NCBI GenBank assembly: GCA_041660785.1
Contig: JBAZVQ010000001.1
Location: forward strand, 689,538-753,537
DNA: 64,000 nucleotides
From: Patescibacteria group bacterium
GTDB lineage: Bacteria; Patescibacteriota; Microgenomatia; UBA1406; GWC2-37-13
Direction of reading: 5' to 3'
The notes beneath the pieces were generated by a model, which saw only the letters and a list, made by a program, of their open reading frames with translations, was not told where the DNA came from and searched no databases. Positions 5,991-25,274 of the stretch are shown one piece after another (position 1 is the stretch's first letter; the number at the start of each line of letters is the position of its first letter). Made by a program: the position numbers and the translations under genes.

Positions 5991-7634
5991 ATGAACAGCT
6001 CAGAATTGTTCGTTAAATGTTTGGAGAATGAGGGAGTCAAGTATATTTTTGGAGTTCCGGGTGAGGAAAATTTACGACTGCTTCAAGCGATAAAAAATTC
6101 TTCGATTGAATTCGTTGTTACTCGTCACGAACAGGCGGCTGGTTTTATGGCGGCTACCATTGGAAGACTGACTGGTATACCTGGCGTTTGTTTATCCACG
6201 CTTGGACCGGGGGCAACTAATTTGGTGACCAGCGCTGCCTATGCTCAACTTGGTGGCATGCCGGCCTTATTTATCACCGGCCAAAAACCGATAAAAAAAA
6301 GTAAACAAGGTAATTTTCAAATAATCAATACGGTTGAGATGTTTAAACCGATTACCAAATTAACCAAGCAGATCATTAATGGGGAAATGATTCCAATGAT
6401 GGTTCGGGAAGCATTTCGGCTGGCAAAGCTTGAAAGACCCGGGGCCGTTCATCTTGAGCTTCCAGAAGACGTGGCAGAAGAAAAAGTAACAGGTATACCT
6501 ATGGTAAATCAACATACCCGTAGGCCAATTGCCGAAGAAAAAGCTATAAAAAAAGCCGTTGAATTAATAGAAAATTCAAAACGTCCCCTTGTATTAATTG
6601 GCGCCGGAGCTAATCGTAAAAGAACTTCACAAATTTTAACTGAATTTATAGATAAAACCGGTATTCCTTTTTTTACCACTCAAATGGGTAAGGGGGTTGT
6701 GAATGAAAAACACTTACAATATTTGGGAACAGCTGCCTTATCTGAAAATGACTATATTCACTGTGCAATAAATAAAGCCGACTTAATCATTAACATTGGC
6801 CACGATACGCTTGAAAAACCACCCTTTATCATGGACGTAAACGATAAAAGAACAGTAATCCATATTAATTTTTTTCCGGCGATCGTTGATCAAATATATT
6901 TTCCTCAACATGAAGTAGTTGGGGATATCGCGAATACGGTGTTTCAAATAGGCGAGTTAATAAAAAAACAAAAAGTGTGGGATTTTTCTTATTTTTATAA
7001 AATGCAAAAATATTTAAATTCCCATTTTCAGTCAATAACAAAAAAAGAGCGGTTTCCGTACACTCCTCAGCAGATTGTAAAAATCATAAGACAGAATATG
7101 AAGGAAGAAGATATTGTAACTTTGGATAATGGTATGTATAAAATCTGGTTTGCTCGAAACTATCACACATTGAAACAAAATACTTTATTGTTGGATAATG
7201 CCTTGGCCAGCATGGGGGCGGGGTTGCCATCGGCAATAGCAGCAAAGATTGTTTTTCCGGAAAAGAAAGTCGTTGCAATATGCGGTGACGGAGGATTTTT
7301 AATGAATTCTCAGGAGTTGGAAACTGCCAATAGGCTTAAATTAAATTTAATTATTATTATTCTACGTGATAATGGGTTTGGCATGATCAAATGGAAACAA
7401 AGATCAATGGGCTTGGATGACTTTGCTTTAAGCTTTGGAAATCCGGATTTCAGCACATTAGCTAAATCGTATGGTGCTATCGGTTACCGAGTTACAAAGA
7501 GCGGTGACTTAGAAAAATATTTAGAAAAAATTTCCAATAAAAAAGGAATTCATTTGATCGATGTTCCAATAGATTATTCCGACGACTATAGAATTTTAGT
7601 CAAAGAATTACAGGAAAAAACATGTTTATTATAA
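5991..7634 (+). CDS. Thiamine-diphosphate-dependent acetolactate synthase-like enzyme (catabolic AlsS type)
   Basis: N-terminal Pyr domain (GVPGEEN, RHEQAAGFMA). C-terminal ThDP/Mg motif GDGGFLMNSQELET followed by a downstream N. Confidence 0.85.
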   Translation: MNSSELFVKCLENEGVKYIFGVPGEENLRLLQAIKNSSIEFVVTRHEQAAGFMAATIGRLTGIPGVCLSTLGPGATNLVTSAAYAQLGGMPALFITGQKPIKKSKQGNFQIINTVEMFKPITKLTKQIINGEMIPMMVREAFRLAKLERPGAVHLELPEDVAEEKVTGIPMVNQHTRRPIAEEKAIKKAVELIENSKRPLVLIGAGANRKRTSQILTEFIDKTGIPFFTTQMGKGVVNEKHLQYLGTAALSENDYIHCAINKADLIINIGHDTLEKPPFIMDVNDKRTVIHINFFPAIVDQIYFPQHEVVGDIANTVFQIGELIKKQKVWDFSYFYKMQKYLNSHFQSITKKERFPYTPQQIVKIIRQNMKEEDIVTLDNGMYKIWFARNYHTLKQNTLLLDNALASMGAGLPSAIAAKIVFPEKKVVAICGDGGFLMNSQELETANRLKLNLIIIILRDNGFGMIKWKQRSMGLDDFALSFGNPDFSTLAKSYGAIGYRVTKSGDLEKYLEKISNKKGIHLIDVPIDYSDDYRILVKELQEKTCLL

Positions 7635-7653: not shown

Positions 7654-9021
7654 ATGAAAAAAATATTTTCGATTAACCCGGCCACGGAAGAGACATTAAA
7701 AGAGTATTCTTTGCTGACAAAAGACGAATTGGAAAATAAAATTCAATTAAGTTTACAAGCGTTTGAAGCTTGGAAAAAAAGATCCTTTGCCAAGAAAAAA
7801 ATCCTTTTAAATAAAGTCGCCGCAATTCTTCGACGTGATAAAGAAAAATTTGCCAGGACAATAACATTAGAAATGGGAAAAACGATCAAGGAAAGTTTGG
7901 GAGAAGTGGAAAAATGTGCTTGGGGCTGTGGATATTTTGCCGAGCAAGGTGAAATAATGTTGAAAAAAGAGATCATTAAAACTGAAGCGACGGAATCATA
8001 TCTCCGTTTTGATCCGCTCGGTCCAATTTTTATCGTTATGCCTTGGAACTTTCCCTTTTGGCAGGTTTTTCGCGTCAGTGTTCCGGCACTGATGGCAGGC
8101 AATGTGATCCTTTTGAAACATGCTTCAAACGTTCCTCAATGTTCTTTTCTTATTGAAAAAATATTTATTGAAGCAGGCTTCCCAAAAGGAGTTTTTCAAA
8201 GTTTGCTTATCGATCCTTCAATGAGCCAAACTGTGATCAATCATAAAAATGTCAGGGCAGTATCATTAACTGGCAGTGAAAAAGCTGGAGCAATTGTTGC
8301 CGCAACAGCAGGAGCTGTCATGAAAAAATCGGTTTTAGAATTGGGAGGGAGCGACCCCTTTATCATCTTAGATGATGCTGATGTGAAAAAGGCCGCCACG
8401 GTTGCTACATCAGCCAGGCTAAACGTAACTGGACAGGTTTGTATCGCTGCTAAACGTTTTATTGTTCAAGAAAAAATTGCCATCCAATTTGTTGCCGAAT
8501 TGACAAAACTATTTTTATTAAAAAAAATTGGTAATCCCTTATTACTCGATACTGATATGGGGCCGCTATCTAGTCGAAAGATCCTAGAAACTATTGAAAA
8601 GCAAGTTGAAGATTCGGTAAAAATGGGGGCAAAAATCGTCGTTGGCGGAAAGCGACTAATTGGCAAAGGGTATTTTTACCCACCTACAGTTATCACTAAT
8701 ATTACTTCCAAAATGCCGATTTATACCGAAGAAACCTTTGGTCCGGTGGCAGTAATTATTATAGTTAAAGATGATATCGAGGCGATAAAAATCGCCAATG
8801 ATACCCGGTTTGGATTGGGCGCTTCAGTTTGGACAAAAAGTTTAAAAAGAGCTCAAAAATTTATTGAAGAATTAGAGGTAGGGTCAGTATTTGTGAACTC
8901 GATGGTCAAATCTGACCCTCGATTGCCAATTGGCGGTACAAAATCATCAGGTTATGGACGAGAGCTATCTTCATACGGGCTCAAAGAGTTTGTCAATATT
9001 AAAACGGTGTTTGTTGAGTAG
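7654..9021 (+). CDS. NAD(P)-dependent aldehyde dehydrogenase, succinate-semialdehyde dehydrogenase-like
   Basis: INPATEE N-terminus, catalytic Glu in LELGGSDP, catalytic Cys in GQVCIAAKR, EETFGPV. Confidence 0.85.
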   Translation: MKKIFSINPATEETLKEYSLLTKDELENKIQLSLQAFEAWKKRSFAKKKILLNKVAAILRRDKEKFARTITLEMGKTIKESLGEVEKCAWGCGYFAEQGEIMLKKEIIKTEATESYLRFDPLGPIFIVMPWNFPFWQVFRVSVPALMAGNVILLKHASNVPQCSFLIEKIFIEAGFPKGVFQSLLIDPSMSQTVINHKNVRAVSLTGSEKAGAIVAATAGAVMKKSVLELGGSDPFIILDDADVKKAATVATSARLNVTGQVCIAAKRFIVQEKIAIQFVAELTKLFLLKKIGNPLLLDTDMGPLSSRKILETIEKQVEDSVKMGAKIVVGGKRLIGKGYFYPPTVITNITSKMPIYTEETFGPVAVIIIVKDDIEAIKIANDTRFGLGASVWTKSLKRAQKFIEELEVGSVFVNSMVKSDPRLPIGGTKSSGYGRELSSYGLKEFVNIKTVFVE

Positions 9022-9044
9022 ATATCTTCATATAGAATATAGGT

Positions 9045-11597
9045 ATGGGTGAAAAAATTAACCTAGAGTTATTAAAAGGCTTAAGCTCGACAGATGTTTT
9101 AGAAAGATTTAAGCATGACGGCTATAATGAGATCCCTTCACAAAAACAACAGAGCACTTTAACAATTTTTTTAAACGTTGTCCGAGAGCCGATGTTACTT
9201 CTGCTTTTAGTCAGCGGATCGATCTACTTTTTTCTAGGGGAGACCCAAGATGCAATGATGTTGATGACCTTTGTCTTGGTTGTGGTCGGGATCACGTTTT
9301 ATCAGGAAAGAAAAACAGAACGAGCAGTTGAAGCCTTAAGAAACCTATCCAGCCCACGTGCCCTAGTTATCCGTGACGGAGAGCGGATTCGGATCGCCGG
9401 TCGTGAAGTGGTTATCGATGACTTGGTGATTATAAGAGAAGGGGATAGAATCCCGGCAGACGCGGTCGTTATTGAAGCCAGTAATTTATTAGTTGATGAG
9501 TCTTTGTTAACAGGCGAGTCGGTTGCGGTTCGCAAATCCGTTTGGGATTATAAAACAAAACTAAATCATCCGGGAGGAGAAGATTTACCTTTCATTTTTT
9601 CTGGAACGATGGTTACCCAGGGTCATGGAATAGCCAAGGTGTTGTCGGTTGGGGCTAAGACGGAAATGGGGAAAATCGGCAAATCGCTTTCAATCATCGA
9701 AGAAGAAGACTCGCTTCTTAAAAAGGAAACAGGCTTAATTGTTCGTAATTTTGCTATCGCTGGACTTTTTCTTTGTTTGATCGTTATTGTCGTTTACGGA
9801 TCAACCCGGGGTGATTGGTTACAAGGATTTTTGGCTGGGTTAACTTTGAGTATGGCGATGTTACCGGAAGAATTTTCCGTGGTCCTTTTGATTTTTCTAA
9901 CTCTTGGAGCCTGGAGAATTTCCAAGAGACAGGTTTTAACAAGAAGGACCGCGGCGATCGAGACGTTAGGAGCAGCGACAGTTTTGTGTGTTGATAAAAC
10001 AGGAACCTTAACTTTAAACAGACAAACTCTTCATGGATTTATGGCAGGCAATCAATATCTGGAAATTTCCGAAAATTTCAAAGTACTACCGGAAAAATAC
10101 CACAGGCTTTTTGAATACGGAATACTCTCCAGCCAAAGAGATCCGTTTGACCCACTGGAAAAAGAAATAAAAAATAAGGGTGAGGAGTATTTAAAAGGGT
10201 CAGAACATATTCATGAAAATTGGCATTTAGTTAAAGAATATCCATTATCAAAAGAACTATTAGCTCTTTCGCACGTCTTTCAATCGCCAGATAATAAAGA
10301 TTATGTTATTGCTGCCAAAGGTGCCCCTGAAGCGATTGCCGATCTCTGTCATTTTTCAAAAAAACAACATAACGATCTAATTAAAAATATTAAATTAATG
10401 TCTGGTAAAGGTTTAAGAGTTATTGGCGTTGCTAAAGCTTTATTTAATAAAAAGGACCTACCAAATATTCAACATGACTTTCCTTTTGAATTTGTTGGAC
10501 TACTTGGGTTTGTTGATCCAATAAGAGCAGCCGTTCCTCAATCAGTCAAAGAATGTTACCAGGCCGGTATCAGGGTGATTATGATCACCGGCGACTATCC
10601 GGGAACAGCTCAATACATTGCCAGTCGAATAGGTTTAAAAAATCAAGGCAAATTTATTACCGGTATGGAACTCCAAAAAATGGATGAAAAGAACTTGAGG
10701 GAAAAAATAAAAACTATCAACATTTTTGCCCGGGTTGTTCCAGAGCAAAAATTATTAATTGTCAACGCATTAAAATCTAATGGTGAAATTGTGGCGATGA
10801 CCGGGGATGGGGTTAACGATGCTCCGGCGTTAAAGTCGGCTCATATTGGGATTGCAATGGGGGAACGGGGAACCGATGTTGCCCGAGAAACAGCCGACCT
10901 AATTTTATTAAATGATGACTTTTCTTCAATTGTTCAAGCGATCCGTCTTGGCCGCCGTATTTTTGATAATTTAAAAAAAGCCATGGCCTACATTTTTGCT
11001 GTTCATATTCCAATAGCTGGAATGTCGCTTTTACCAATACTTTTTAAATTGCCGATAGTTTTGTATCCTGCCCATATCGCTTTTTTGGAATTGATCATCG
11101 ATCCATCCTGTTCAATCGTTTTTGAATCAGAGAGGGAAGAAAAAGATGTGATGAACCGACCACCTAGGAATCTTAGATCCCCACTTTTTGGTCGGGAAAC
11201 TTTTTTTACCAGTTTAACACAAGGTTTTAGTATTTTAGCAGTTGTCTTTATTGTCTTTTTGTTATCGATAAATAAAGGAGCCAATCACGACCAAGCCAGA
11301 TCTTTAGCCTTCATTAGTTTAGTGTTAACCAATTTACTTTTGATTGTTACCAATTTATCTCAGTCCAATCATTTTATTGACATTCTTAAGGAGAAAAATA
11401 AGGCTTTATATTGGGTACTTGGATCAACTTTTATATTTTTGATCCTTGTTTTTTACATTCCATTTTTCCGAAATCTTTTTCATTTTACCAATCTTCATTT
11501 TAATGATGTGTTTATGGCGGCAGGAATCGCTTTGGTTAGTTTGATCTGGTTTGAAGGAATAAAAAAGATAAAGATGAAAGCGAATTACCAAAAGTAA
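9045..11597 (+). CDS. P-type cation-transporting ATPase (type II, Ca2+/Mg2+-ATPase-like)
   Basis: TGES actuator motif, phosphorylation site DKTGTLT, hinge TGDGVNDAPAL, multiple TM helices at both ends. Confidence 0.92.
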   Translation: MGEKINLELLKGLSSTDVLERFKHDGYNEIPSQKQQSTLTIFLNVVREPMLLLLLVSGSIYFFLGETQDAMMLMTFVLVVVGITFYQERKTERAVEALRNLSSPRALVIRDGERIRIAGREVVIDDLVIIREGDRIPADAVVIEASNLLVDESLLTGESVAVRKSVWDYKTKLNHPGGEDLPFIFSGTMVTQGHGIAKVLSVGAKTEMGKIGKSLSIIEEEDSLLKKETGLIVRNFAIAGLFLCLIVIVVYGSTRGDWLQGFLAGLTLSMAMLPEEFSVVLLIFLTLGAWRISKRQVLTRRTAAIETLGAATVLCVDKTGTLTLNRQTLHGFMAGNQYLEISENFKVLPEKYHRLFEYGILSSQRDPFDPLEKEIKNKGEEYLKGSEHIHENWHLVKEYPLSKELLALSHVFQSPDNKDYVIAAKGAPEAIADLCHFSKKQHNDLIKNIKLMSGKGLRVIGVAKALFNKKDLPNIQHDFPFEFVGLLGFVDPIRAAVPQSVKECYQAGIRVIMITGDYPGTAQYIASRIGLKNQGKFITGMELQKMDEKNLREKIKTINIFARVVPEQKLLIVNALKSNGEIVAMTGDGVNDAPALKSAHIGIAMGERGTDVARETADLILLNDDFSSIVQAIRLGRRIFDNLKKAMAYIFAVHIPIAGMSLLPILFKLPIVLYPAHIAFLELIIDPSCSIVFESEREEKDVMNRPPRNLRSPLFGRETFFTSLTQGFSILAVVFIVFLLSINKGANHDQARSLAFISLVLTNLLLIVTNLSQSNHFIDILKEKNKALYWVLGSTFIFLILVFYIPFFRNLFHFTNLHFNDVFMAAGIALVSLIWFEGIKKIKMKANYQK

Positions 11598-12628: not shown

Positions 12629-13459
12629 TTATATTTTTTTTGTTTGATAATAATTTTTTCTTAAAAAAACCATATATACGATTGCAATATACAAAATCAT
12701 AATAAATAATTTTACAAAACTAAATTCCCGCTCAATTCCAAAAAAGCTTTTCATCATGTGACCAATGAGACTGCTCTTATGTGGCAAAAAGTTTAGTGGA
12801 AAAGACATAATTTTTGCTAAATCTATGTCAAAACCGTGTTCCAATAATTCTGTTACGCCATTTTGAACTAATGAAGCACCAAGAATTACAATCATATATT
12901 CGGTGTATTTAAATACTTTTTCAATTGAAAATTTTACATAAGCAAAAAAAGTCATTACTCCAACGATTGAAGCGGAAACGAAACCCAACATGAGACCAAT
13001 AAAATTTTGAATAAAAACAACAAAGAGGGAAGTGCTCGCAGTAAAAAGAGCAATTTCAAATCCCTCCCTGATGACTAAAAAGGCAATAGTTGAGAATAAA
13101 GAAAAATCAAAAACTTTTTTCTGTAATTTTTGTTGAACTTTAATTAAAGTACTATTACGACTGCGTTGAATGACATCATGTAAGGAAAAGACAACATAGG
13201 CAATGAACAAACCAGAAAATATCATTAGATAGCTCTCAAGTAGCTCAGCATTTTTTTCGGTTAAGATACCATGAACTTGATTTGCAAAAAAATAAGTTAA
13301 AGTTGTAAGCAAAAGGGAAAAAATAATTCCAATTGTTGCGGCCAAGCCAATTTCGAACTCTTTTTTAAGATTTAATTTTCTTGAAATACCTAAGAATACT
13401 CCAATAATCAAAAACGCCTCTAAAAACTCTCGAAAGGAAACAATAGCTGTGGTAATCAT
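12629..13459 (-). CDS. FTR1/EfeU-family iron permease
   Basis: Two REXXE motifs (REFLEA near the N-terminus, REGFEIA mid-protein) in a polytopic membrane protein. Confidence 0.75.
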   Translation of the reverse strand: MITTAIVSFREFLEAFLIIGVFLGISRKLNLKKEFEIGLAATIGIIFSLLLTTLTYFFANQVHGILTEKNAELLESYLMIFSGLFIAYVVFSLHDVIQRSRNSTLIKVQQKLQKKVFDFSLFSTIAFLVIREGFEIALFTASTSLFVVFIQNFIGLMLGFVSASIVGVMTFFAYVKFSIEKVFKYTEYMIVILGASLVQNGVTELLEHGFDIDLAKIMSFPLNFLPHKSSLIGHMMKSFFGIEREFSFVKLFIMILYIAIVYMVFLRKNYYQTKKI

Positions 13460-13492
13460 AGACTAACTAATACTAATTCAGTAATAGTAATA

Positions 13493-13762
13493 TTATAGCG
13501 GATTATTTTTTTTAACCAAGGTCTCTTTTTTTTCTTTTGTTAATTTCTTGATCTCAAACTCTCTCTTTAAAACTTCGTTAATAGTTTTATACTTTTCAAA
13601 ATAAACCAATTTCACCGGACGTCGAGCACGCGTATATTTGGATTTTGAATCGTCGCTATTATGTTCTTTTATTCGTCGTTGGAGATCTTTTGTTTGTCCA
13701 CAGTAAAGCGAGTTATCCGAACAGCGAAGAAGATAGAGATAGTACATATGGATTATAGACAA
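13493..13762 (-). CDS. Stand-alone GIY-YIG nuclease-superfamily protein (UPF0213-like)
   Basis: YYLYLLRCSDNSLYCGQT...RRIKEHN matches the GIY...YIG...R...E core. Start codon abuts the stop of the upstream b5 gene. Confidence 0.85.
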   Translation of the reverse strand: MSIIHMYYLYLLRCSDNSLYCGQTKDLQRRIKEHNSDDSKSKYTRARRPVKLVYFEKYKTINEVLKREFEIKKLTKEKKETLVKKNNPL

Positions 13763-14212
13763 TTATTGTATCAGATATTGTTGCAGCATTGCTTTAGCTG
13801 ATGCCGAATGATCCGCTGGAATCATTGCATCCTTTGTATGAAAACCGTTTGAAGCATCAGTTCCACAATATTTCAAAAGAGTTCCATCGCCTCCCGGATG
13901 TGAGCCGAAAAATGATGTTATGTCGTAAAGTTGGCCGTCAATAATAAACCAACATGAACTTCGGCTATTGTGTTGTGAAAGTTGAGAAGATAAATCGGGG
14001 GGGGAAGTTGGGGTTGGGTCAGTAGTGGTTTTGTCAGTGGTAGAGACGCCCAAATTGGGCGTCTGTACTTCAAGATTTAATATCGGATCAATTACATTTT
14101 TTGTTATGGCCTTTGAGGGGGAAATCTGTTTATTCAGAAAAAATAAAGTAATGAAAAAAAATACAAAATCTATTATGGCCATCCGAGATAAAGTGCGGAG
14201 ATATTTTTTCAT
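13763..14212 (-). CDS. Membrane-anchored cytochrome b5-like heme-binding protein
   Basis: N-terminal TM and Thr/Pro linker. b5 core is CWFIIDGQLYDITSFFGSHPGG...CGTDASNGFH, with HPGG and a second His. ATGA overlap with the NOX-like gene. Confidence 0.75.
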   Translation of the reverse strand: MKKYLRTLSRMAIIDFVFFFITLFFLNKQISPSKAITKNVIDPILNLEVQTPNLGVSTTDKTTTDPTPTSPPDLSSQLSQHNSRSSCWFIIDGQLYDITSFFGSHPGGDGTLLKYCGTDASNGFHTKDAMIPADHSASAKAMLQQYLIQ

Positions 14213-15501
14213 AATCCTGTTGAAAATTCTTCATTGTAGAATTTTTCTTCCGGTAGACCCAACTCTACGAATTGTTTTTTAAAACTTTCCATCATTACCG
14301 GTGGTCCACAACACAAAATTGAATTTATATTATCGATATCTTCCAGTCCAATGATTTTTTTGGCCGTTAATCTCCGATTTTCTTCGGTACACCATTTAAC
14401 AAAAGTGATATTGGGAGTATTTTGGACCAACTGTTCGATTTCACTATTAAAAACGCCTTCTTCTGGGGTTCGGTAGCAATAATATACTTTTGTTGAAGTG
14501 CAATCTTTACAATATGACTCGCTTCGAATCATGCTCAAAAAAGGCGTGATTCCAATCCCTCCCCCAATCCAAATGCTTTTTTCTTTATTAATATTTTGTC
14601 CAAATGATCCATATGGACCAAACAGATAGGTTCGATCTCCCCTTTTTAAATTAGGAAGCTTGAGAGTATAGTCTCCAGTGATCTTTATTGTTAAGCGAAT
14701 CAGGGGGTCAGATGGAGCTGAAGAAAGAGAAAAAGGGTGAGGTTCTGTTCCAACGACTTGATTATTAAAGCGGGCATAGACAAATTGGCCTGGAATAAAA
14801 TTAATTATTTTTTTACCCAAAGGTCTTAAATATATATTTATAATATCTAAAGATCTTTCAATTTTATCAATTTCATACGAAAATTTAGGACCCAAGTGTT
14901 GATAAAAAAATATCGTATACAACGCTGACAATAATCCAATTCCAATCATAAATCCAATCCAAATCTTGAGTGGCGGATAGGCAGAAACGTCACTGACAAT
15001 AATCAGAGAATGAACCGCTCCTAATAAAAAGGCCAACCCAAGGGACTGATGGGTAATTTTCCATATATGATAAGGAAGTTTGATAAAGACCATAAAAACA
15101 AACGAAAGAATCATGACGTAAATTCCGAAAATTCCAAGATTATAAGCAAGGTCAACCCCTGGATACAAATATAATGAGGCAACTTTTAAATTCGGTAATG
15201 ATTGAACAATAAATAACAAAGGATGATTAATAAGAAAGATAAAACTTACGGCTCCAAGAATATGATGTGTCGAATATACCTTATCCATTCCTCCAAATAA
15301 TTCTTCCATTTTTTTTATCCGCGTCGTCATAATCAAAGTCATTGACATCAAAACAATTCCTAGCAACCCAAAAATTTGTCCAAGCGATCGATATGGCTGT
15401 TGAAAAACTATTTTAAAATCAGTTTTCGATAAAAGCCACAAATTGATGGTTAGTAAAAGTGGAAAAAGGATAGCGATGATCGACCTGACATATTTATTCA
15501 T
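14209..15501 (-). CDS. NOX/FRE-family flavocytochrome (ferric-reductase TM domain + FAD + NAD(P)H domains)
   Basis: Paired His in TM helices (STHHILG..INH and ITHQSLG..AVH), FAD motif HPFSLSS, NAD(P)H motif GGGIGITP, C-terminal CGPP. Confidence 0.85.
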   Translation of the reverse strand: MNKYVRSIIAILFPLLLTINLWLLSKTDFKIVFQQPYRSLGQIFGLLGIVLMSMTLIMTTRIKKMEELFGGMDKVYSTHHILGAVSFIFLINHPLLFIVQSLPNLKVASLYLYPGVDLAYNLGIFGIYVMILSFVFMVFIKLPYHIWKITHQSLGLAFLLGAVHSLIIVSDVSAYPPLKIWIGFMIGIGLLSALYTIFFYQHLGPKFSYEIDKIERSLDIINIYLRPLGKKIINFIPGQFVYARFNNQVVGTEPHPFSLSSAPSDPLIRLTIKITGDYTLKLPNLKRGDRTYLFGPYGSFGQNINKEKSIWIGGGIGITPFLSMIRSESYCKDCTSTKVYYCYRTPEEGVFNSEIEQLVQNTPNITFVKWCTEENRRLTAKKIIGLEDIDNINSILCCGPPVMMESFKKQFVELGLPEEKFYNEEFSTGL

Positions 15502-16246
15502 CTATTTCAAAGAATGAATTTGAATTAAACTCGGTTTCTTGTTGTGTTCGATGTTCTCTAATTTCGCTTTCATCGCGATCGTCGTCAATGTTACTGTCAT
15601 CATCATCGTCATTAGACCCGGATCCAAATCGTGCTCCTTCGGTGCTTCCTGTTCCGGTTGTGGCCGTACTACCTGTAATTCTAGTACTTCCCGTGGCCGT
15701 GGACCCGGTTCTTGTTCCATTACTATACGCCGTTCCCGTTGACGCAACTAAATATTTTTGCATTCTGCTAACATCGGCGCCATGTCTGGTTTGATAAGTA
15801 CTGGTCATATCAGAATTACAGGTAAAAATATTTCCTCCGGAATGAGTTGTTTGAAGTGAAAAAACATCGTATTCTTTGCCAAATAATGTAATAAGACACG
15901 AATTACTATTTTGAGCCACGTTATTATTGACTGCTGGAGCCAAGGTCGGAGATATCATTGCAATTATTTTTTTGGCGATATTACCTGCTGGACTAGGAAT
16001 ACTATTGGTTAATTTAGTTCCACCTGCGCTATTTGTCTTCGCGATGGATATTGTTTTTTTTGTCTTATCAGTATTGTCAACCGCCTGAACACCTCTTACC
16101 TCGGGAACACTAGGTTTAAAAGAATTCATACTTCCTAATAACTTAGCCGTTCCGGCTGCAGAAGTTGTTACTGTTATCCCGGTTAATACCGTTACCACGA
16201 TCGCCGAAACAATATTTTTTGAAATATATTCGATTATGTTTTTCAT
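15494..16246 (-). CDS. Membrane-anchored divergent b5-like protein with Gly/Ser/Thr linker and poly-acidic tail
   Basis: Core CLITLFGKEYDVFSLQTTHSGGNIFTCNSDMTSTYQTRHG is a paralog of the core of 16828-17418. Tail is GSNDDDDDSNIDDDRDESE. Confidence 0.55.
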   Translation of the reverse strand: MKNIIEYISKNIVSAIVVTVLTGITVTTSAAGTAKLLGSMNSFKPSVPEVRGVQAVDNTDKTKKTISIAKTNSAGGTKLTNSIPSPAGNIAKKIIAMISPTLAPAVNNNVAQNSNSCLITLFGKEYDVFSLQTTHSGGNIFTCNSDMTSTYQTRHGADVSRMQKYLVASTGTAYSNGTRTGSTATGSTRITGSTATTGTGSTEGARFGSGSNDDDDDSNIDDDRDESEIREHRTQQETEFNSNSFFEIDE

Positions 16247-16327
16247 AGGAAATAAATTAAAAAAATAATAATAAATACATAGAGACTGTTTAAAGAATCT
16301 ATCATATTAATTGCAGTCTAATATATT

Positions 16328-16350
16328 AGACATTAACAACAGATTAAGAA
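16328..16350 (-). promoter_or_regulatory. b5-cluster direct-repeat box, copy C
   Basis: Coding-strand TTCTTAATCTGTTGTTAATGTCT, 82-104 nt upstream of ATG 16246. Confidence 0.4.
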
Positions 16351-16355
16351 AATCA

Positions 16356-16727
16356 TTAGTTGTTAATAACTGATAATTTCCCAACAATAGGATATTTTCG
16401 TTTAATGATATCTCCACCAACCAAATGAAGTTCAATACTCGAATCTTTTCCGGCCAGATAATGGTATGGACCTCCAACCTTATAAAACTCTTTTCCTTTT
16501 GTAACGTCATAAATATTTCCATCAAGAGACAAGTAAATCGGAAGCTTTGGTTCGGTTCCGTTAAAACGGCCGAGCTCTTGAAGAGTAAATATTTTTAAAT
16601 TTTGTTTACTATCAATATTTTTGAGAGATGCTGCTTTTGGATTTAATTCCACCACTTGAAAATATATAAATCCAAAAATTATCCCGGTCATGATTGCCAC
16701 CAATAGGAAATATATTTTTGTTTTCAT
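16356..16727 (-). CDS. MAPR-type (PGRMC-like) cytochrome b5 heme/steroid-binding domain protein with N-terminal TM
   Basis: FTLQELGRFNGTEPKLPIYLSLDGNIYDVTKGKEFYKVGGPYHYLAGKDSS parallels the eukaryotic MAPR core (F..EL..FDG....I..A..G.V.DVT.G..FYG..GPY..FAG.DAS). It lacks the b5 HPGG histidines. Confidence 0.75.
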   Translation of the reverse strand: MKTKIYFLLVAIMTGIIFGFIYFQVVELNPKAASLKNIDSKQNLKIFTLQELGRFNGTEPKLPIYLSLDGNIYDVTKGKEFYKVGGPYHYLAGKDSSIELHLVGGDIIKRKYPIVGKLSVINN

Positions 16728-16747
16728 ATAAAAAATTTAGCAAAAAT

Positions 16748-16769
16748 AAGATTAAGAGAGGATTAAGAA
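16748..16769 (-). promoter_or_regulatory. b5-cluster direct-repeat box, copy A
   Basis: Coding-strand TTCTTAATCCTCTCTTAATCTT (TCTTAAT twice, 11-nt phase), then 5 nt, TGC, TAAATT and 6 nt before ATG 16727. Confidence 0.5.
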
Positions 16770-16777
16770 GCAAATAT

Positions 16778-16810
16778 AAAAAAAGCCAAGAGTCTCATAA
16801 ACTCTTGGCT
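16778..16810 (-). terminator. Rho-independent terminator of gene 16828-17418
   Basis: Minus strand reads AGCCAAGAGT-TTATGAG-ACTCTTGGCT followed by TTTTTTT. Confidence 0.75.
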
Positions 16811-16827
16811 TATCAATTATCACTAAT

Positions 16828-17418
16828 TTAGTCATCGTGTTCTGAGACTATATCGTCATTTATCTCGACATGGGCTCTTTGATTAATATGACTATCATTT
16901 CGTGTCTCGTCGCTTGTTTCTTTTTCATGAATTTCAGCTTTTTCATGAATCTCCACTTGAACATTTTCATGAATTTCTTCTGGGCTTTCATTTATGTCAT
17001 CAGAATCATGATCTACCTCATCAGAATCATGGTCGTTATTTACGGGAGGTGTTGGGCTGATAGATGGTGTAACGCTAGGATTAACAGTCGGCGTGGGCGT
17101 TGGTGTGTTAGTCGGAACAGTTGTTGGCGTTGGCGTTGCCGCAACTATGTACGGGGCTATTCTTGACACATCAGTCCCATGTTGGGATTGATAGACAGCT
17201 GTCATATCCATGCCACAAACAAAAACATTTCCTCCAGTATGGTTTGTTTGAAGTGAAGTAACATCATACTGTATGCCAAAAATTGTAACAATGCAAGGAG
17301 TCGCTGCTTCAGTAGTTTTTATACCACCGGCAGAAGTCCACGCAACAAATCCTAAAATTAATACCGCTCCCAAACCAACAAACACTTTTCTTATTACCGA
17401 CGGAAAAACATTTTTCAT
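16828..17418 (-). CDS. Membrane-anchored divergent b5-like protein with Pro/Thr linker and His/Asp/Glu-rich tail
   Basis: Core CIVTIFGIQYDVTSLQTNHTGGNVFVCGMDMTAVYQSQHG. Tail is DHDSDEVDHDSDD...EEIHENVQVEIHEKAEIHEKE. Confidence 0.55.
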   Translation of the reverse strand: MKNVFPSVIRKVFVGLGAVLILGFVAWTSAGGIKTTEAATPCIVTIFGIQYDVTSLQTNHTGGNVFVCGMDMTAVYQSQHGTDVSRIAPYIVAATPTPTTVPTNTPTPTPTVNPSVTPSISPTPPVNNDHDSDEVDHDSDDINESPEEIHENVQVEIHEKAEIHEKETSDETRNDSHINQRAHVEINDDIVSEHDD

Positions 17419-17460
17419 ATGAATTTATTTAATTAATAACAAACCGATGGTAGCACTTAG

Positions 17461-17482
17461 AAGATTAAGAGTGGGTTAAGAA
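17461..17482 (-). promoter_or_regulatory. b5-cluster direct-repeat box, copy B
   Basis: Coding-strand TTCTTAACCCACTCTTAATCTT, then 5 nt, TGC, TACCAT. This is the same geometry as copy A. Confidence 0.5.
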
Positions 17483-23300: not shown

Positions 23301-23373
23301 TTGGGGAGCAAGGATTCGAACCTTGAGTCGCGCTGCTCCAAAGGCAGGCGTGTTACCGTTACACCACTCCCCA
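23301..23373 (-). tRNA. tRNA-Gln (anticodon UUG)
   Basis: Minus strand TGGGGAG TG GTGT AACGGTA ACAC G CCTGC CTTTGGA GCAGC ... CAAGG TTCGAAT CCTTG CTCCCCA A. Shows a cloverleaf, T-loop TTCGAAT, and the U1-A72 pair typical of bacterial tRNA-Gln. CCA is not encoded. Confidence 0.85.
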
Positions 23374-25154: not shown

Positions 25155-25274
25155 GCCCCGGCTACGACCTACTTTCCCTTCATCTTTCGACATTAGTATC
25201 ATCGGCGCTGACTCGTTTCACGACCTTGTTCGGGATGGAAAAGGGTGGTACCAAGTCGCTCAAGTAACCAGGGC
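25155..25274 (-). rRNA. rrf: 5S ribosomal RNA
   Basis: Minus strand CCCTGGTTACTTGAGCG...CCATCCCGAACAAGGTCGTGAAACGAGTCAGCGCCGATGATACT...GTAGGTCGTAGCCGGGG. Contains the universal CCGAAC...GTGAAAC...GCGCCGATG core. Helix I pairs the two ends, and a U-tract follows. Confidence 0.88.

Follow-up and report, generated by a model that had tools for sequence, protein, structure and literature searches.

What does a flavocytochrome of the NADPH oxidase/ferric reductase (NOX/FRE) type reduce when it is encoded among four membrane-anchored proteins of the cytochrome b5 superfamily and close to an FTR1 iron permease? This question is raised by an island of genes at positions 12,629 to 17,482 of a 64,000-nucleotide stretch of DNA, referred to as the window, from contig JBAZVQ010000001.1 (assembly GCA_041660785.1, positions 689,538 to 753,537) of a Patescibacteria group bacterium. 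A reading made from the letters alone, referred to as the sequence-only reading, had interpreted the island as a reductive iron-uptake or outward electron-transfer module of a composition not described before. Outward electron transfer by the flavocytochrome and the anchored b5 proteins is, as we infer, the best reading, and a route from NAD(P)H via the NOX-like protein and tethered b5 proteins to an external acceptor would have a probability of about 0.6; a coupling to iron uptake through FTR1 is not supported. The composition, too, is known. The island is an instance of the Patescibacteria "pFre/cytochrome b5" gene cluster, a cluster type that is already contained in a 2021 preprint (bioRxiv 10.1101/2021.11.17.468889).

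All open reading frames (ORFs) named in the sequence-only reading are present on the minus strand, with the coordinates that it gives. The order in the direction of transcription is b5D, the MAPR-like b5 gene, b5B, the NOX-like gene, b5A, a GIY-YIG gene, and FTR1. The locus is contained in a 315-kb metagenome contig (ENA ERZ27249449) and was assembled in two further sequencing runs; the closest homologues carry the NCBI name "Patescibacteria group bacterium", and the related loci come from groundwater metagenomes. Loci used for comparison are numbered with the prefix L.

The NOX-Like Flavocytochrome and Its b5 Partner

The gene at 14209–15501 (minus strand) encodes an SpNOX-like flavocytochrome, in which six transmembrane helices with two bis-His haem sites are followed by a FAD/NAD(P)H dehydrogenase domain. 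Its assignment to the NOX/FRE type holds by Pfam domains, bis-His pairs, and FAD and NAD(P)H motifs. Ferric_reduct (PF01794) is matched with 45.8 bits at a cut-off of 28, and FAD_binding_8 (29 bits) and NAD_binding_1 (41 bits) both exceed their curated cut-offs. Among the families that had been expected to be matched in the island, Ferric_reduct, FAD_binding_8, FTR1, and the b5 family in two genes pass, while NAD_binding_6 remains slightly under its cut-off (21.9 versus 22.2 bits) and two of the b5 genes fail. The haem-ligand pairs are H79/H93 and H151/H164, with spacings of 13 and 12, and the motifs HPFS, GGGIGITP, and CGP are located at residues 255, 313, and 398, respectively. The four haem histidines are invariant in 27 NOX homologues, and so are the HP of HPFS, the GIG..P segment, and CGP.

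The nearest solved structure is that of the NOX of Streptococcus pneumoniae (SpNOX; 8QTA/8QQ7), which is matched at E ~1e-33 over residues 47–415. Hydropathy predicts six transmembrane segments, and the outer loop between the fifth and the sixth of them comprises only about 7 residues, so that the outer haem would be uncapped, as in SpNOX. In the cryo-EM structure of SpNOX the outer haem is strongly solvent-exposed; cytochrome c is reduced by this enzyme directly and anaerobically, and its ferric reductase activity is poor, with a kcat of 0.05 s-1 (PMC11564096). A validated site of O2 reduction was not found in SpNOX, and the authors query O2 as the physiological acceptor and suggest explicitly that a protein acceptor may exist (PMC11564096).

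A candidate for such an acceptor is given by the gene neighborhood. Loci around NOX homologues from 80 species, together with several metagenome contigs, were collected, and their ORFs were scanned with the window proteins and a b5 profile. In 22 of the 80 species a b5 gene is found within 1.5 kb of the NOX homologue. This zone makes up 19% of the flanking DNA of the 80-species loci, yet 28 of the 29 b5 ORFs lie in it, each in the orientation of NOX, so that the grouping is not random. Usually, the b5 start overlaps the NOX stop codon by 4 nt, which is the arrangement seen in the window, where the NOX-like gene and b5A share positions 14209–14212; b5B and the NOX-like gene overlap by 8 nt (15494–15501), and both overlaps had been reported correctly. 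The slot after NOX may be filled by a b5 protein of the classical or of a short class, which are described below. Among the recurrent families of 28 b5-coupled neighborhoods, NOX and b5 are each present in 28, MAPR-like b5 in 9, ABC-transporter genes in 8 and 5, a response regulator in 6, and a histidine kinase in 5. What is conserved as a unit is NOX together with b5 genes. Conservation of the neighborhood, on which the sequence-only reading had made itself dependent, is therefore found for the NOX–b5 part, and it is not found for FTR1.

According to record titles, the 22 b5-coupled species are 12 Patescibacteria, 3 DPANN archaea (two Pacearchaeota and one Woesearchaeota), a Nitrincola sp. 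isolate, 5 metagenome-assembled genomes labeled "uncultured Gammaproteobacteria/Pseudomonadales", and 1 "uncultured bacterium". The archaeal NOX–b5 loci are L015, L020, and L050, which are likewise DPANN metagenome-assembled genomes by record title. In the cultured gammaproteobacterium Nitrincola sp. (NZ_CP176580.1, L088 9971–12459), a signal–b5–FMN_bind fusion has a LysR regulator and MgtE as its neighbors.

NOX genes without b5 were examined for another partner shared downstream, and none was found; the neighbors are STAS, cytochrome b561-type, glyoxalase, or dioxygenase proteins or have no Pfam match. A Saccharimonadales locus (L045) contains two divergently transcribed NOX-like paralogues, at 8435–9733 (minus strand) and 9932–11332 (plus strand), and no b5 gene.

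The Four b5-Fold Proteins

Four genes had been assigned to the cytochrome b5 superfamily, and for all of them the assignment is confirmed: for b5A and the MAPR-like protein by Pfam, and for b5B and b5D by profile comparison and by AlphaFold2 modeling combined with Foldseek. They are the only four ORFs in the 64 kb that match the b5 profile. The N-terminal anchor proposed for each of them is recovered as one hydrophobic segment per protein.

b5A (13763–14212, minus strand) consists of the anchor, a Pro/Thr/Ser linker, and a classical bacterial b5 domain with HPGG…HS and two Cys residues. Pfam Cyt-b5 is matched with 68.7 bits, and an alignment to 1CXY and classical b5 places HPGG and the second His in register. 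The top PDB match is Ectothiorhodospira vacuolata cytochrome b558, a prokaryotic soluble b5 (1CXY, E 1.5e-13), with both His and both Cys aligned. The two proteins have in common an extended loop ahead of the second His and the positions of both Cys, but b5A differs in being tethered to the membrane by its N-terminal anchor and linker and in being encoded beside a NOX-type reductase.

The MAPR-like protein of 123 amino acids (16356–16727, minus strand) is of the cytb5MY type, with an N-terminal anchor and a Tyr-type haem domain that contains neither His ligands nor Cys. It matches Pfam Cyt-b5 with 29.7 bits at a cut-off of 23.7, and its top PDB matches are plant MAPR (1T0G/1J03), PGRMC1 (4X8Y), and archaeal cytb5M (6NZX). 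The haem tyrosines of the MAPR family are kept (FY..GGPY and KY): the segments EFYKVGGPYHYLAGKD and KRKYPIVGKL align to 4X8Y and 1T0G and supply the equivalents of Y107/Y113 and K163/Y164 of PGRMC1.

b5B and b5D have no Pfam match. In b5B (15494–16246, minus strand) a signal/anchor and a linker of about 85 amino acids precede a short (class-2) b5 domain with HSGG…HG and two Cys, which is followed by a Gly/Ser/Thr linker and a poly-acidic tail; in b5D (16828–17418, minus strand) a signal/anchor is followed by a short (class-2) domain with HTGG…HG and two Cys, a Pro/Thr linker, and a His/Asp/Glu-rich tail. Residues shared with b5A in the alignment of both domains are C, G, YD, H-x-GG, C, D, and H. 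With the short domain as query, word-indexed searches for homologues returned only 1 and 4 matches, while an exhaustive HMMER scan yielded 749 representatives, 381 of them at E <= 1e-10. When clean sets of the two classes were compared by hhalign, the short class was related to classical b5 with a probability of 98% and E 1.3e-13, and the His pair and the Cys pair coincided; reciprocal hidden Markov model searches gave E ~1e-10. In a 90-sequence alignment the invariant columns of the short class are two Cys (C8, C34), two His (H26, H46), GG, D, and G. The AlphaFold2 model of the b5D domain built from this alignment (pLDDT 89, pTM 0.72) was compared with the PDB by Foldseek, and the top 50 matches were all cytochrome b5, with TM scores of 0.62–0.69 and a root-mean-square deviation of about 2.3 Å over 58 columns; a model from a shallow 6-sequence alignment led to the same matches. 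b5B and b5D are thus assigned, from sequence profiles and a structure model, to a short b5-fold class with predicted bis-His ligation.

The C-terminal tails of the short class are frequently acidic: at least 30% of the last 40 residues are Asp or Glu in 88 of 148 members, and 99 of 153 terminate in at least two Asp or Glu residues. In the window the acidic tails are encoded at 15494–15700 (b5B) and 16828–17040 (b5D). The threefold EIHE of the b5D tail was considered as a conserved metal motif of the ExxE type and was rejected, being present in 5 of 153 family members; conservation in the tail is limited to its acidic character and a run of Asp/Glu at the C-terminus. Relatives of the short domain occur as 2–4 tandem copies, with Pro/Thr linkers, or as fusions to Big_2, Big_7, or fn3. 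One protein of 1252 amino acids (P0198) carries 10 b5-like repeats and looks eukaryotic.

An accumulation of haem-binding domains on long stalks also resembles a surface haem relay. In a bacterium unable to make haem, the surface b5 and MAPR-like proteins would bind exogenous haem, and the reductase would trigger its release or transfer. Such a role would fit the Tyr ligation of the MAPR type, which holds ferric haem tightly and ferrous haem weakly (bioRxiv 10.1101/2021.11.17.468889), and the reductase itself requires two haems. However, no recurrent haem transporter is found in the 28 neighborhoods, and invariant bis-His ligation, as in the classical and short classes, is usual for electron carriers and not for exchangeable haem sites. 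Haem capture is, on this balance, very improbable, and electron transfer remains the preferred function of the b5 proteins.

Location of the b5 Domains

Several independent hints point to an extracytoplasmic location of the b5 domains. In 48 of the 51 b5 ORFs of the loci and in 128 of 148 representatives of the short class, the N-terminus is short and is followed by one hydrophobic segment. The linkers are rich in Pro, Thr, and Ser; in stretches of 25 residues these three account for 20 in b5D and 16 in b5A. Two Cys residues, conserved without exception in the short class and almost so in the classical class, coincide with the Cys pair of 1CXY, whereas eukaryotic cytosolic b5 does not have them; since these cysteines are conserved and are not haem ligands, a disulfide and hence an oxidizing compartment is suggested. 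The 1CXY protein itself is presumably periplasmic and disulfide-bonded. Furthermore, some short-class members are fused to surface domains of the Big_2, Big_7, Big_13, or fn3 families, and others form chains of 3–4 b5 domains.

A further hint comes from the Nitrincola gene that overlaps the NOX stop, which encodes a signal followed by Cyt-b5 and FMN_bind, the latter in 2 matched stretches. ApbE flavinylates the FMN_bind domain in extracytosolic electron-transfer systems, among them "MsrQ-like" ones with PF01794 and PF00175, and flavinylation is markedly under-represented in the Candidate Phyla Radiation (CPR) (PMC8238504). By analogy, the b5 proteins look like the counterpart of the flavinylated acceptor in CPR bacteria and DPANN archaea.

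The FTR1 Neighbor and Iron Uptake

The FTR1/EfeU-family permease (12629–13459, minus strand) is a genuine member of its family. Pfam FTR1 (PF03239) is matched with 62.3 bits at a cut-off of 25.3, both REXXE motifs are present (REFLE at 10 and REGFE at 131), and there are about 7 hydrophobic segments; against the NCBIfam EfeU equivalog model it reaches only 83 bits, far under the cut-off of 255. As had been noted, a 33-nt gap precedes the gene. The junction with a spacing of 0 nt, which had been counted as well, does exist as an abutting ORF, but the partner is a small stand-alone GIY-YIG protein (ORF 13493–13762, minus strand; Pfam GIY-YIG 70 bits) that had been left unnamed. Gene callers place its start at 13747, which results in a 15-nt gap to b5A. 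This protein is a neighbor outside the module.

It is from this arrangement that dedicated reductive iron uptake was proposed, in which the NOX-like protein and the b5 proteins would reduce extracellular Fe(III) and FTR1 would import Fe(II), with the b5 proteins replacing Fet3 or EfeO/EfeB. In its favor are the two REXXE motifs of a permease gene that lies 33 nt past GIY-YIG, the presence of FTR1 also at the locus of the two closest relatives, and the tails of b5B and b5D, poly-acidic and rich in His, which could bind cations. A precedent for linkage between a ferric reductase domain (FRD) protein and a ferrous-iron transporter is provided by 153 MsrQ-like clusters that include VIT1 (PMC8238504). 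Proteins of the Fet3, EfeO, EfeB, and P19 types, multicopper oxidases, and cupredoxins are not among the Pfam families within 10 kb on either side, to which the search was confined.

Synteny across b5-coupled and FTR1-bearing loci argues against FTR1 as a component of the module. The permease is absent from all 22 other b5-coupled NOX loci of the 80-species set, and among the 28 b5-coupled neighborhoods it is confined to the window's own lineage; relatives at 40–55% NOX identity, including L004 and L091 (50–55%), have no FTR1. A further 20 metagenome loci were compared whose FTR1 is 47–90% identical (19 of them at 77–90%), and in 17 of these GIY-YIG lies directly upstream of FTR1, independent of the NOX/b5 module. 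Five FTR1 loci with 6–10 kb of upstream sequence (L095, L096, L097, L098, and L106) contain neither NOX nor b5, and their gene order is DUF2130…S9 peptidase…GIY-YIG–FTR1. The NOX/b5 cassette is thus either present or absent beside a pre-existing GIY-YIG–FTR1 pair.

The two closest relatives, L089 and L090, with NOX proteins 80–81% identical to that of the window, have the order b5D–MAPR–b5B–NOX–b5A–response regulator–histidine kinase–GIY-YIG–FTR1. Three genes consequently separate b5A from FTR1 in these loci, and the distance of at most 350 nt in the window arose because the two-component genes between them were lost. The FTR1 proteins of L089 (7939–8577) and L090 (12105–12728) lack the last ~65 residues, including the final transmembrane helix; in L089, moreover, KEFFE stands in place of the first REXXE motif, and the reading frame overlaps a convergent P-type ATPase gene. 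These changes may reflect decay. Together with the poor ferric reductase activity of SpNOX (PMC11564096), these observations render dedicated iron uptake unlikely, and the NOX–b5 module is preferred as a route for outward electron transfer in its own right. Fe(III) may be one acceptor of the module.

On the FTR1 side the cluster is flanked by genes for a P-type cation ATPase (9045–11597), an aldehyde dehydrogenase (7654–9021), and a thiamine pyrophosphate (TPP) enzyme (5991–7634), all on the plus strand. This block is syntenic with L089, L090, L096, and L101 and marks a conserved backbone that either has or lacks the NOX/b5 cassette at its side.

Direct-Repeat Motif and Two-Component System

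A direct-repeat motif, TTCTTAACCCACTCTTAAT, is located 46 nt upstream of the b5D start (17464–17482, minus strand) and is a candidate response-regulator operator. A second copy is found upstream of the MAPR-like gene (16751–16769, minus strand) and a third one 86 nt upstream of b5B (16332–16350, minus strand). The motif recurs in other loci, those of distant CPR lineages included: it stands upstream of orthologous genes in L089, L090, L006, L007, and L011, and the exact pattern TTCTTAAYCNNNTNTTAAT precedes module genes in L089, L090, and L011, a WS6 locus. In the relaxed form CTTAAY-N5-NTTAAT there are 18 matches in 1.5 Mb of loci, of which 13 precede module genes by 40–102 nt on the sense strand. 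These 13 sites belong to the window and to five of the six loci that encode the cluster two-component system; none of the five examined loci lacking that system has such a site. Direct repeats with a periodicity of ~11 bp are typical binding sites of the OmpR family, and the motif is, judging from its distribution, probably the operator of an OmpR-type regulator that is encoded in the clusters of relatives and was lost from this locus.

Besides L089 and L090, cluster two-component genes following a b5 gene are found in L006, L007, L011, and L014, and the system is therefore regarded as ancestral to the cluster. In the window the response regulator and the histidine kinase are cleanly absent at the junction of b5A and GIY-YIG (13748–13762; compare 5590–7658 in L089 and 9743–11811 in L090), while the candidate operator sites are kept although the regulator genes are missing from the locus. 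The window's only OmpR-type pair, at 462–2143, was considered as the relocated cognate pair and was rejected, its identity being 48% versus 58% for a far more distant cluster-encoded orthologue; the response regulator at 462–1136 is a paralogue.

A terminator-like hairpin with a 13-bp stem and a subsequent T-run (16783–16811, minus strand) was located by consensus scan only, 17 nt past the b5D stop, and suggests that b5D is a transcription unit of its own. The module looks like three co-regulated units, namely b5D, the MAPR-like gene, and b5B–NOX–b5A. A promoter scan produced no more matches than in shuffled sequence. Between b5A and FTR1 no terminator is predicted, which would speak for iron uptake; the lineage-specific FTR1 is possibly co-transcribed here by read-through of b5B–NOX–b5A into GIY-YIG–FTR1, in this genome only. 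On the other hand, no copy of the motif precedes GIY-YIG or FTR1, and no match to the 19-bp Fur-box consensus with up to 3 mismatches is found anywhere in the window; both observations count against a dedicated role in iron uptake.

Relation to Described Systems

In section 3.5 of the preprint that covers this cluster type, a putative CPR operon of "cytb5MY/pFre/cytb5-like" genes with a two-component system was reported, with function unknown, and two atypical b5-like types, CBLA and CBLB, were defined (bioRxiv 10.1101/2021.11.17.468889). PF01794 was counted there in 1427 of 7645 CPR genomes, 185 of which have PF00173 within 10 kb, and the two-component system was found in 22 of 36 genomes, which makes it frequent and not obligatory. 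A later functional study of the CPR pFre/b5 cluster was not found in a literature search. The window shares with the published cluster the ferric-reductase-domain protein, the MAPR-like b5 with its haem tyrosines, and further atypical b5-like genes, all of them transmembrane-bearing, and its closest relatives also have the two-component system. It differs in having no two-component genes at the locus, in possessing a fourth b5 gene (b5D), and in abutting GIY-YIG–FTR1. The preprint is silent on topology, on cysteines and a disulfide, on a cis motif, on FTR1, on a link to SpNOX, and on archaea, and whereas the pairing was not seen there outside CPR, it is found here also in DPANN archaea and in Nitrincola. 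New are the evidence for extracytoplasmic b5 domains, the direct-repeat motif upstream of three units, and the NOX–b5 pair in DPANN archaea and in Nitrincola, there with the b5–FMN_bind fusion.

With SpNOX (8QQ7, 8QTA; PMC5676040, PMC11564096) the flavocytochrome has in common the six-transmembrane bis-haem domain, the FAD/NAD(P)H domains, the lack of regulatory domains, and short outer loops; but the two are only distantly matched, and a b5 partner is missing from the Streptococcus locus (L084). MsrQ-like flavinylated systems (Méheust et al. 2021, PMC8238504) and E. coli MsrPQ are comparable as well, and some flavinylated clusters are linked to a ferrous-iron transporter. In the window, however, the acceptor would be a b5 haem domain and not an ApbE-flavinylated FMN_bind protein: neither apbE nor an FMN_bind family is recorded at the locus, and FMN_bind was seen only in the Nitrincola fusion, which links the b5 and the flavinylated designs. 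With fungal Fre1–Fet3–Ftr1 and bacterial EfeUOB and FtrABCD iron uptake the island can be compared in that it has an FRD-superfamily reductase and an FTR1-family permease bearing two REXXE motifs; it differs in that the multicopper oxidase, EfeO, EfeB, P19, or cupredoxin partners are missing within 10 kb and in that its linkage of reductase and permease is not conserved.

Proposed Electron Route

Electrons would pass from cytoplasmic NAD(P)H to FAD and on through two stacked b haems, inner and outer, to the outer face of the membrane. There, the flavocytochrome would reduce membrane-tethered extracytoplasmic haem proteins of the b5 fold, instead of or besides O2. b5A would be the first acceptor, given its translational coupling to NOX and its stalk, which is the shortest; the two short bis-His b5 proteins with long linkers and acidic tails, and the Tyr-ligated MAPR-like protein, would come next, so that the b5 and MAPR-like proteins would carry electrons from the membrane to an external acceptor.

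The haems of NOX enzymes have low potentials, and classical b5 has a potential of about 0 mV. Transfer from NOX to b5 would consequently be downhill and formation of superoxide from b5 uphill. This speaks against a role purely in the production of reactive oxygen species and in favor of acceptors with a higher potential, for example Fe(III) chelates, quinones or humics, or a partner protein.

A true NADPH oxidase, releasing extracellular superoxide as a weapon or signal against a host and using the b5 proteins as accessory or protective components, would be compatible with the complete NOX catalytic core and with the consumption of O2 and NADPH by SpNOX in vitro (PMC11564096). Yet a functional O2-reduction center was not found by the authors of that study, who doubt O2 as the acceptor, and the translationally coupled b5 partner would be left without explanation. 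With potentials near 0 mV, b5 would be too high for superoxide and would drain electrons from O2, and the related loci are of groundwater origin. A superoxide-generating function is, hence, improbable, and transfer from the flavocytochrome to the b5 proteins is the route that is preferred.

Several points weigh against this route or limit its support. The in vitro use of O2 by SpNOX is one of them. Another is that in 58 of the 80 NOX-homologue loci there is no b5 neighbor and the neighbors are heterogeneous, so that the reductase family works without b5 in many organisms. Simple counting of Lys plus Arg on either side of the b5 anchors gives 1.71 versus 1.52, which favors neither orientation clearly. 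Finally, the motif pattern has, with at most one mismatch, 3 matches in the 64 kb where 0.12 would be expected by chance, but it was derived from those very sites; the count within the window is therefore circular, and only the recurrence elsewhere is independent.

Further Features of the Window

A solitary 5S rRNA gene (25156–25272) and a single tRNA gene (23301–23373) are situated 1.8 kb apart on the minus strand, and no 16S or 23S rRNA gene is present in the 64 kb. Unlinked rRNA genes are common in CPR genomes.

Significance for Patescibacteria and DPANN Archaea

Patescibacteria and DPANN archaea are described as being without electron transport chains and O2 reductases (PMC7507113), which makes a selective value of an NAD(P)H-oxidizing electron sink plausible. 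In this group without respiratory chains the module would serve as an electron sink for NAD(P)H, as an extracellular reductase, or as both. A more far-reaching proposal, which is possible and is advanced tentatively, is that tethered extracellular b5 proteins are the physiological protein acceptors of bacterial NOX homologues. They would complete a minimal, quinone-free, haem-only chain from NAD(P)H via FAD and two b haems to a b5 "wire", which in some bacterial relatives has as many as 4 domains in tandem, and by this chain Patescibacteria and DPANN episymbionts might dump fermentative reducing power onto external acceptors or hosts, under dedicated two-component control.

If this were true, a concrete candidate would be at hand for the physiological acceptor of bacterial NOX homologues, a question raised by the structural work on SpNOX. 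The question is testable, as enzymes of the SpNOX type are readily expressed in E. coli, the b5 domains are soluble and of small size, and the cultured Nitrincola carries a NOX–b5–FMN_bind pair. A conserved, regulated, haem-based export of electrons would, in that case, change the picture of redox balance and host interaction in Patescibacteria and DPANN archaea.

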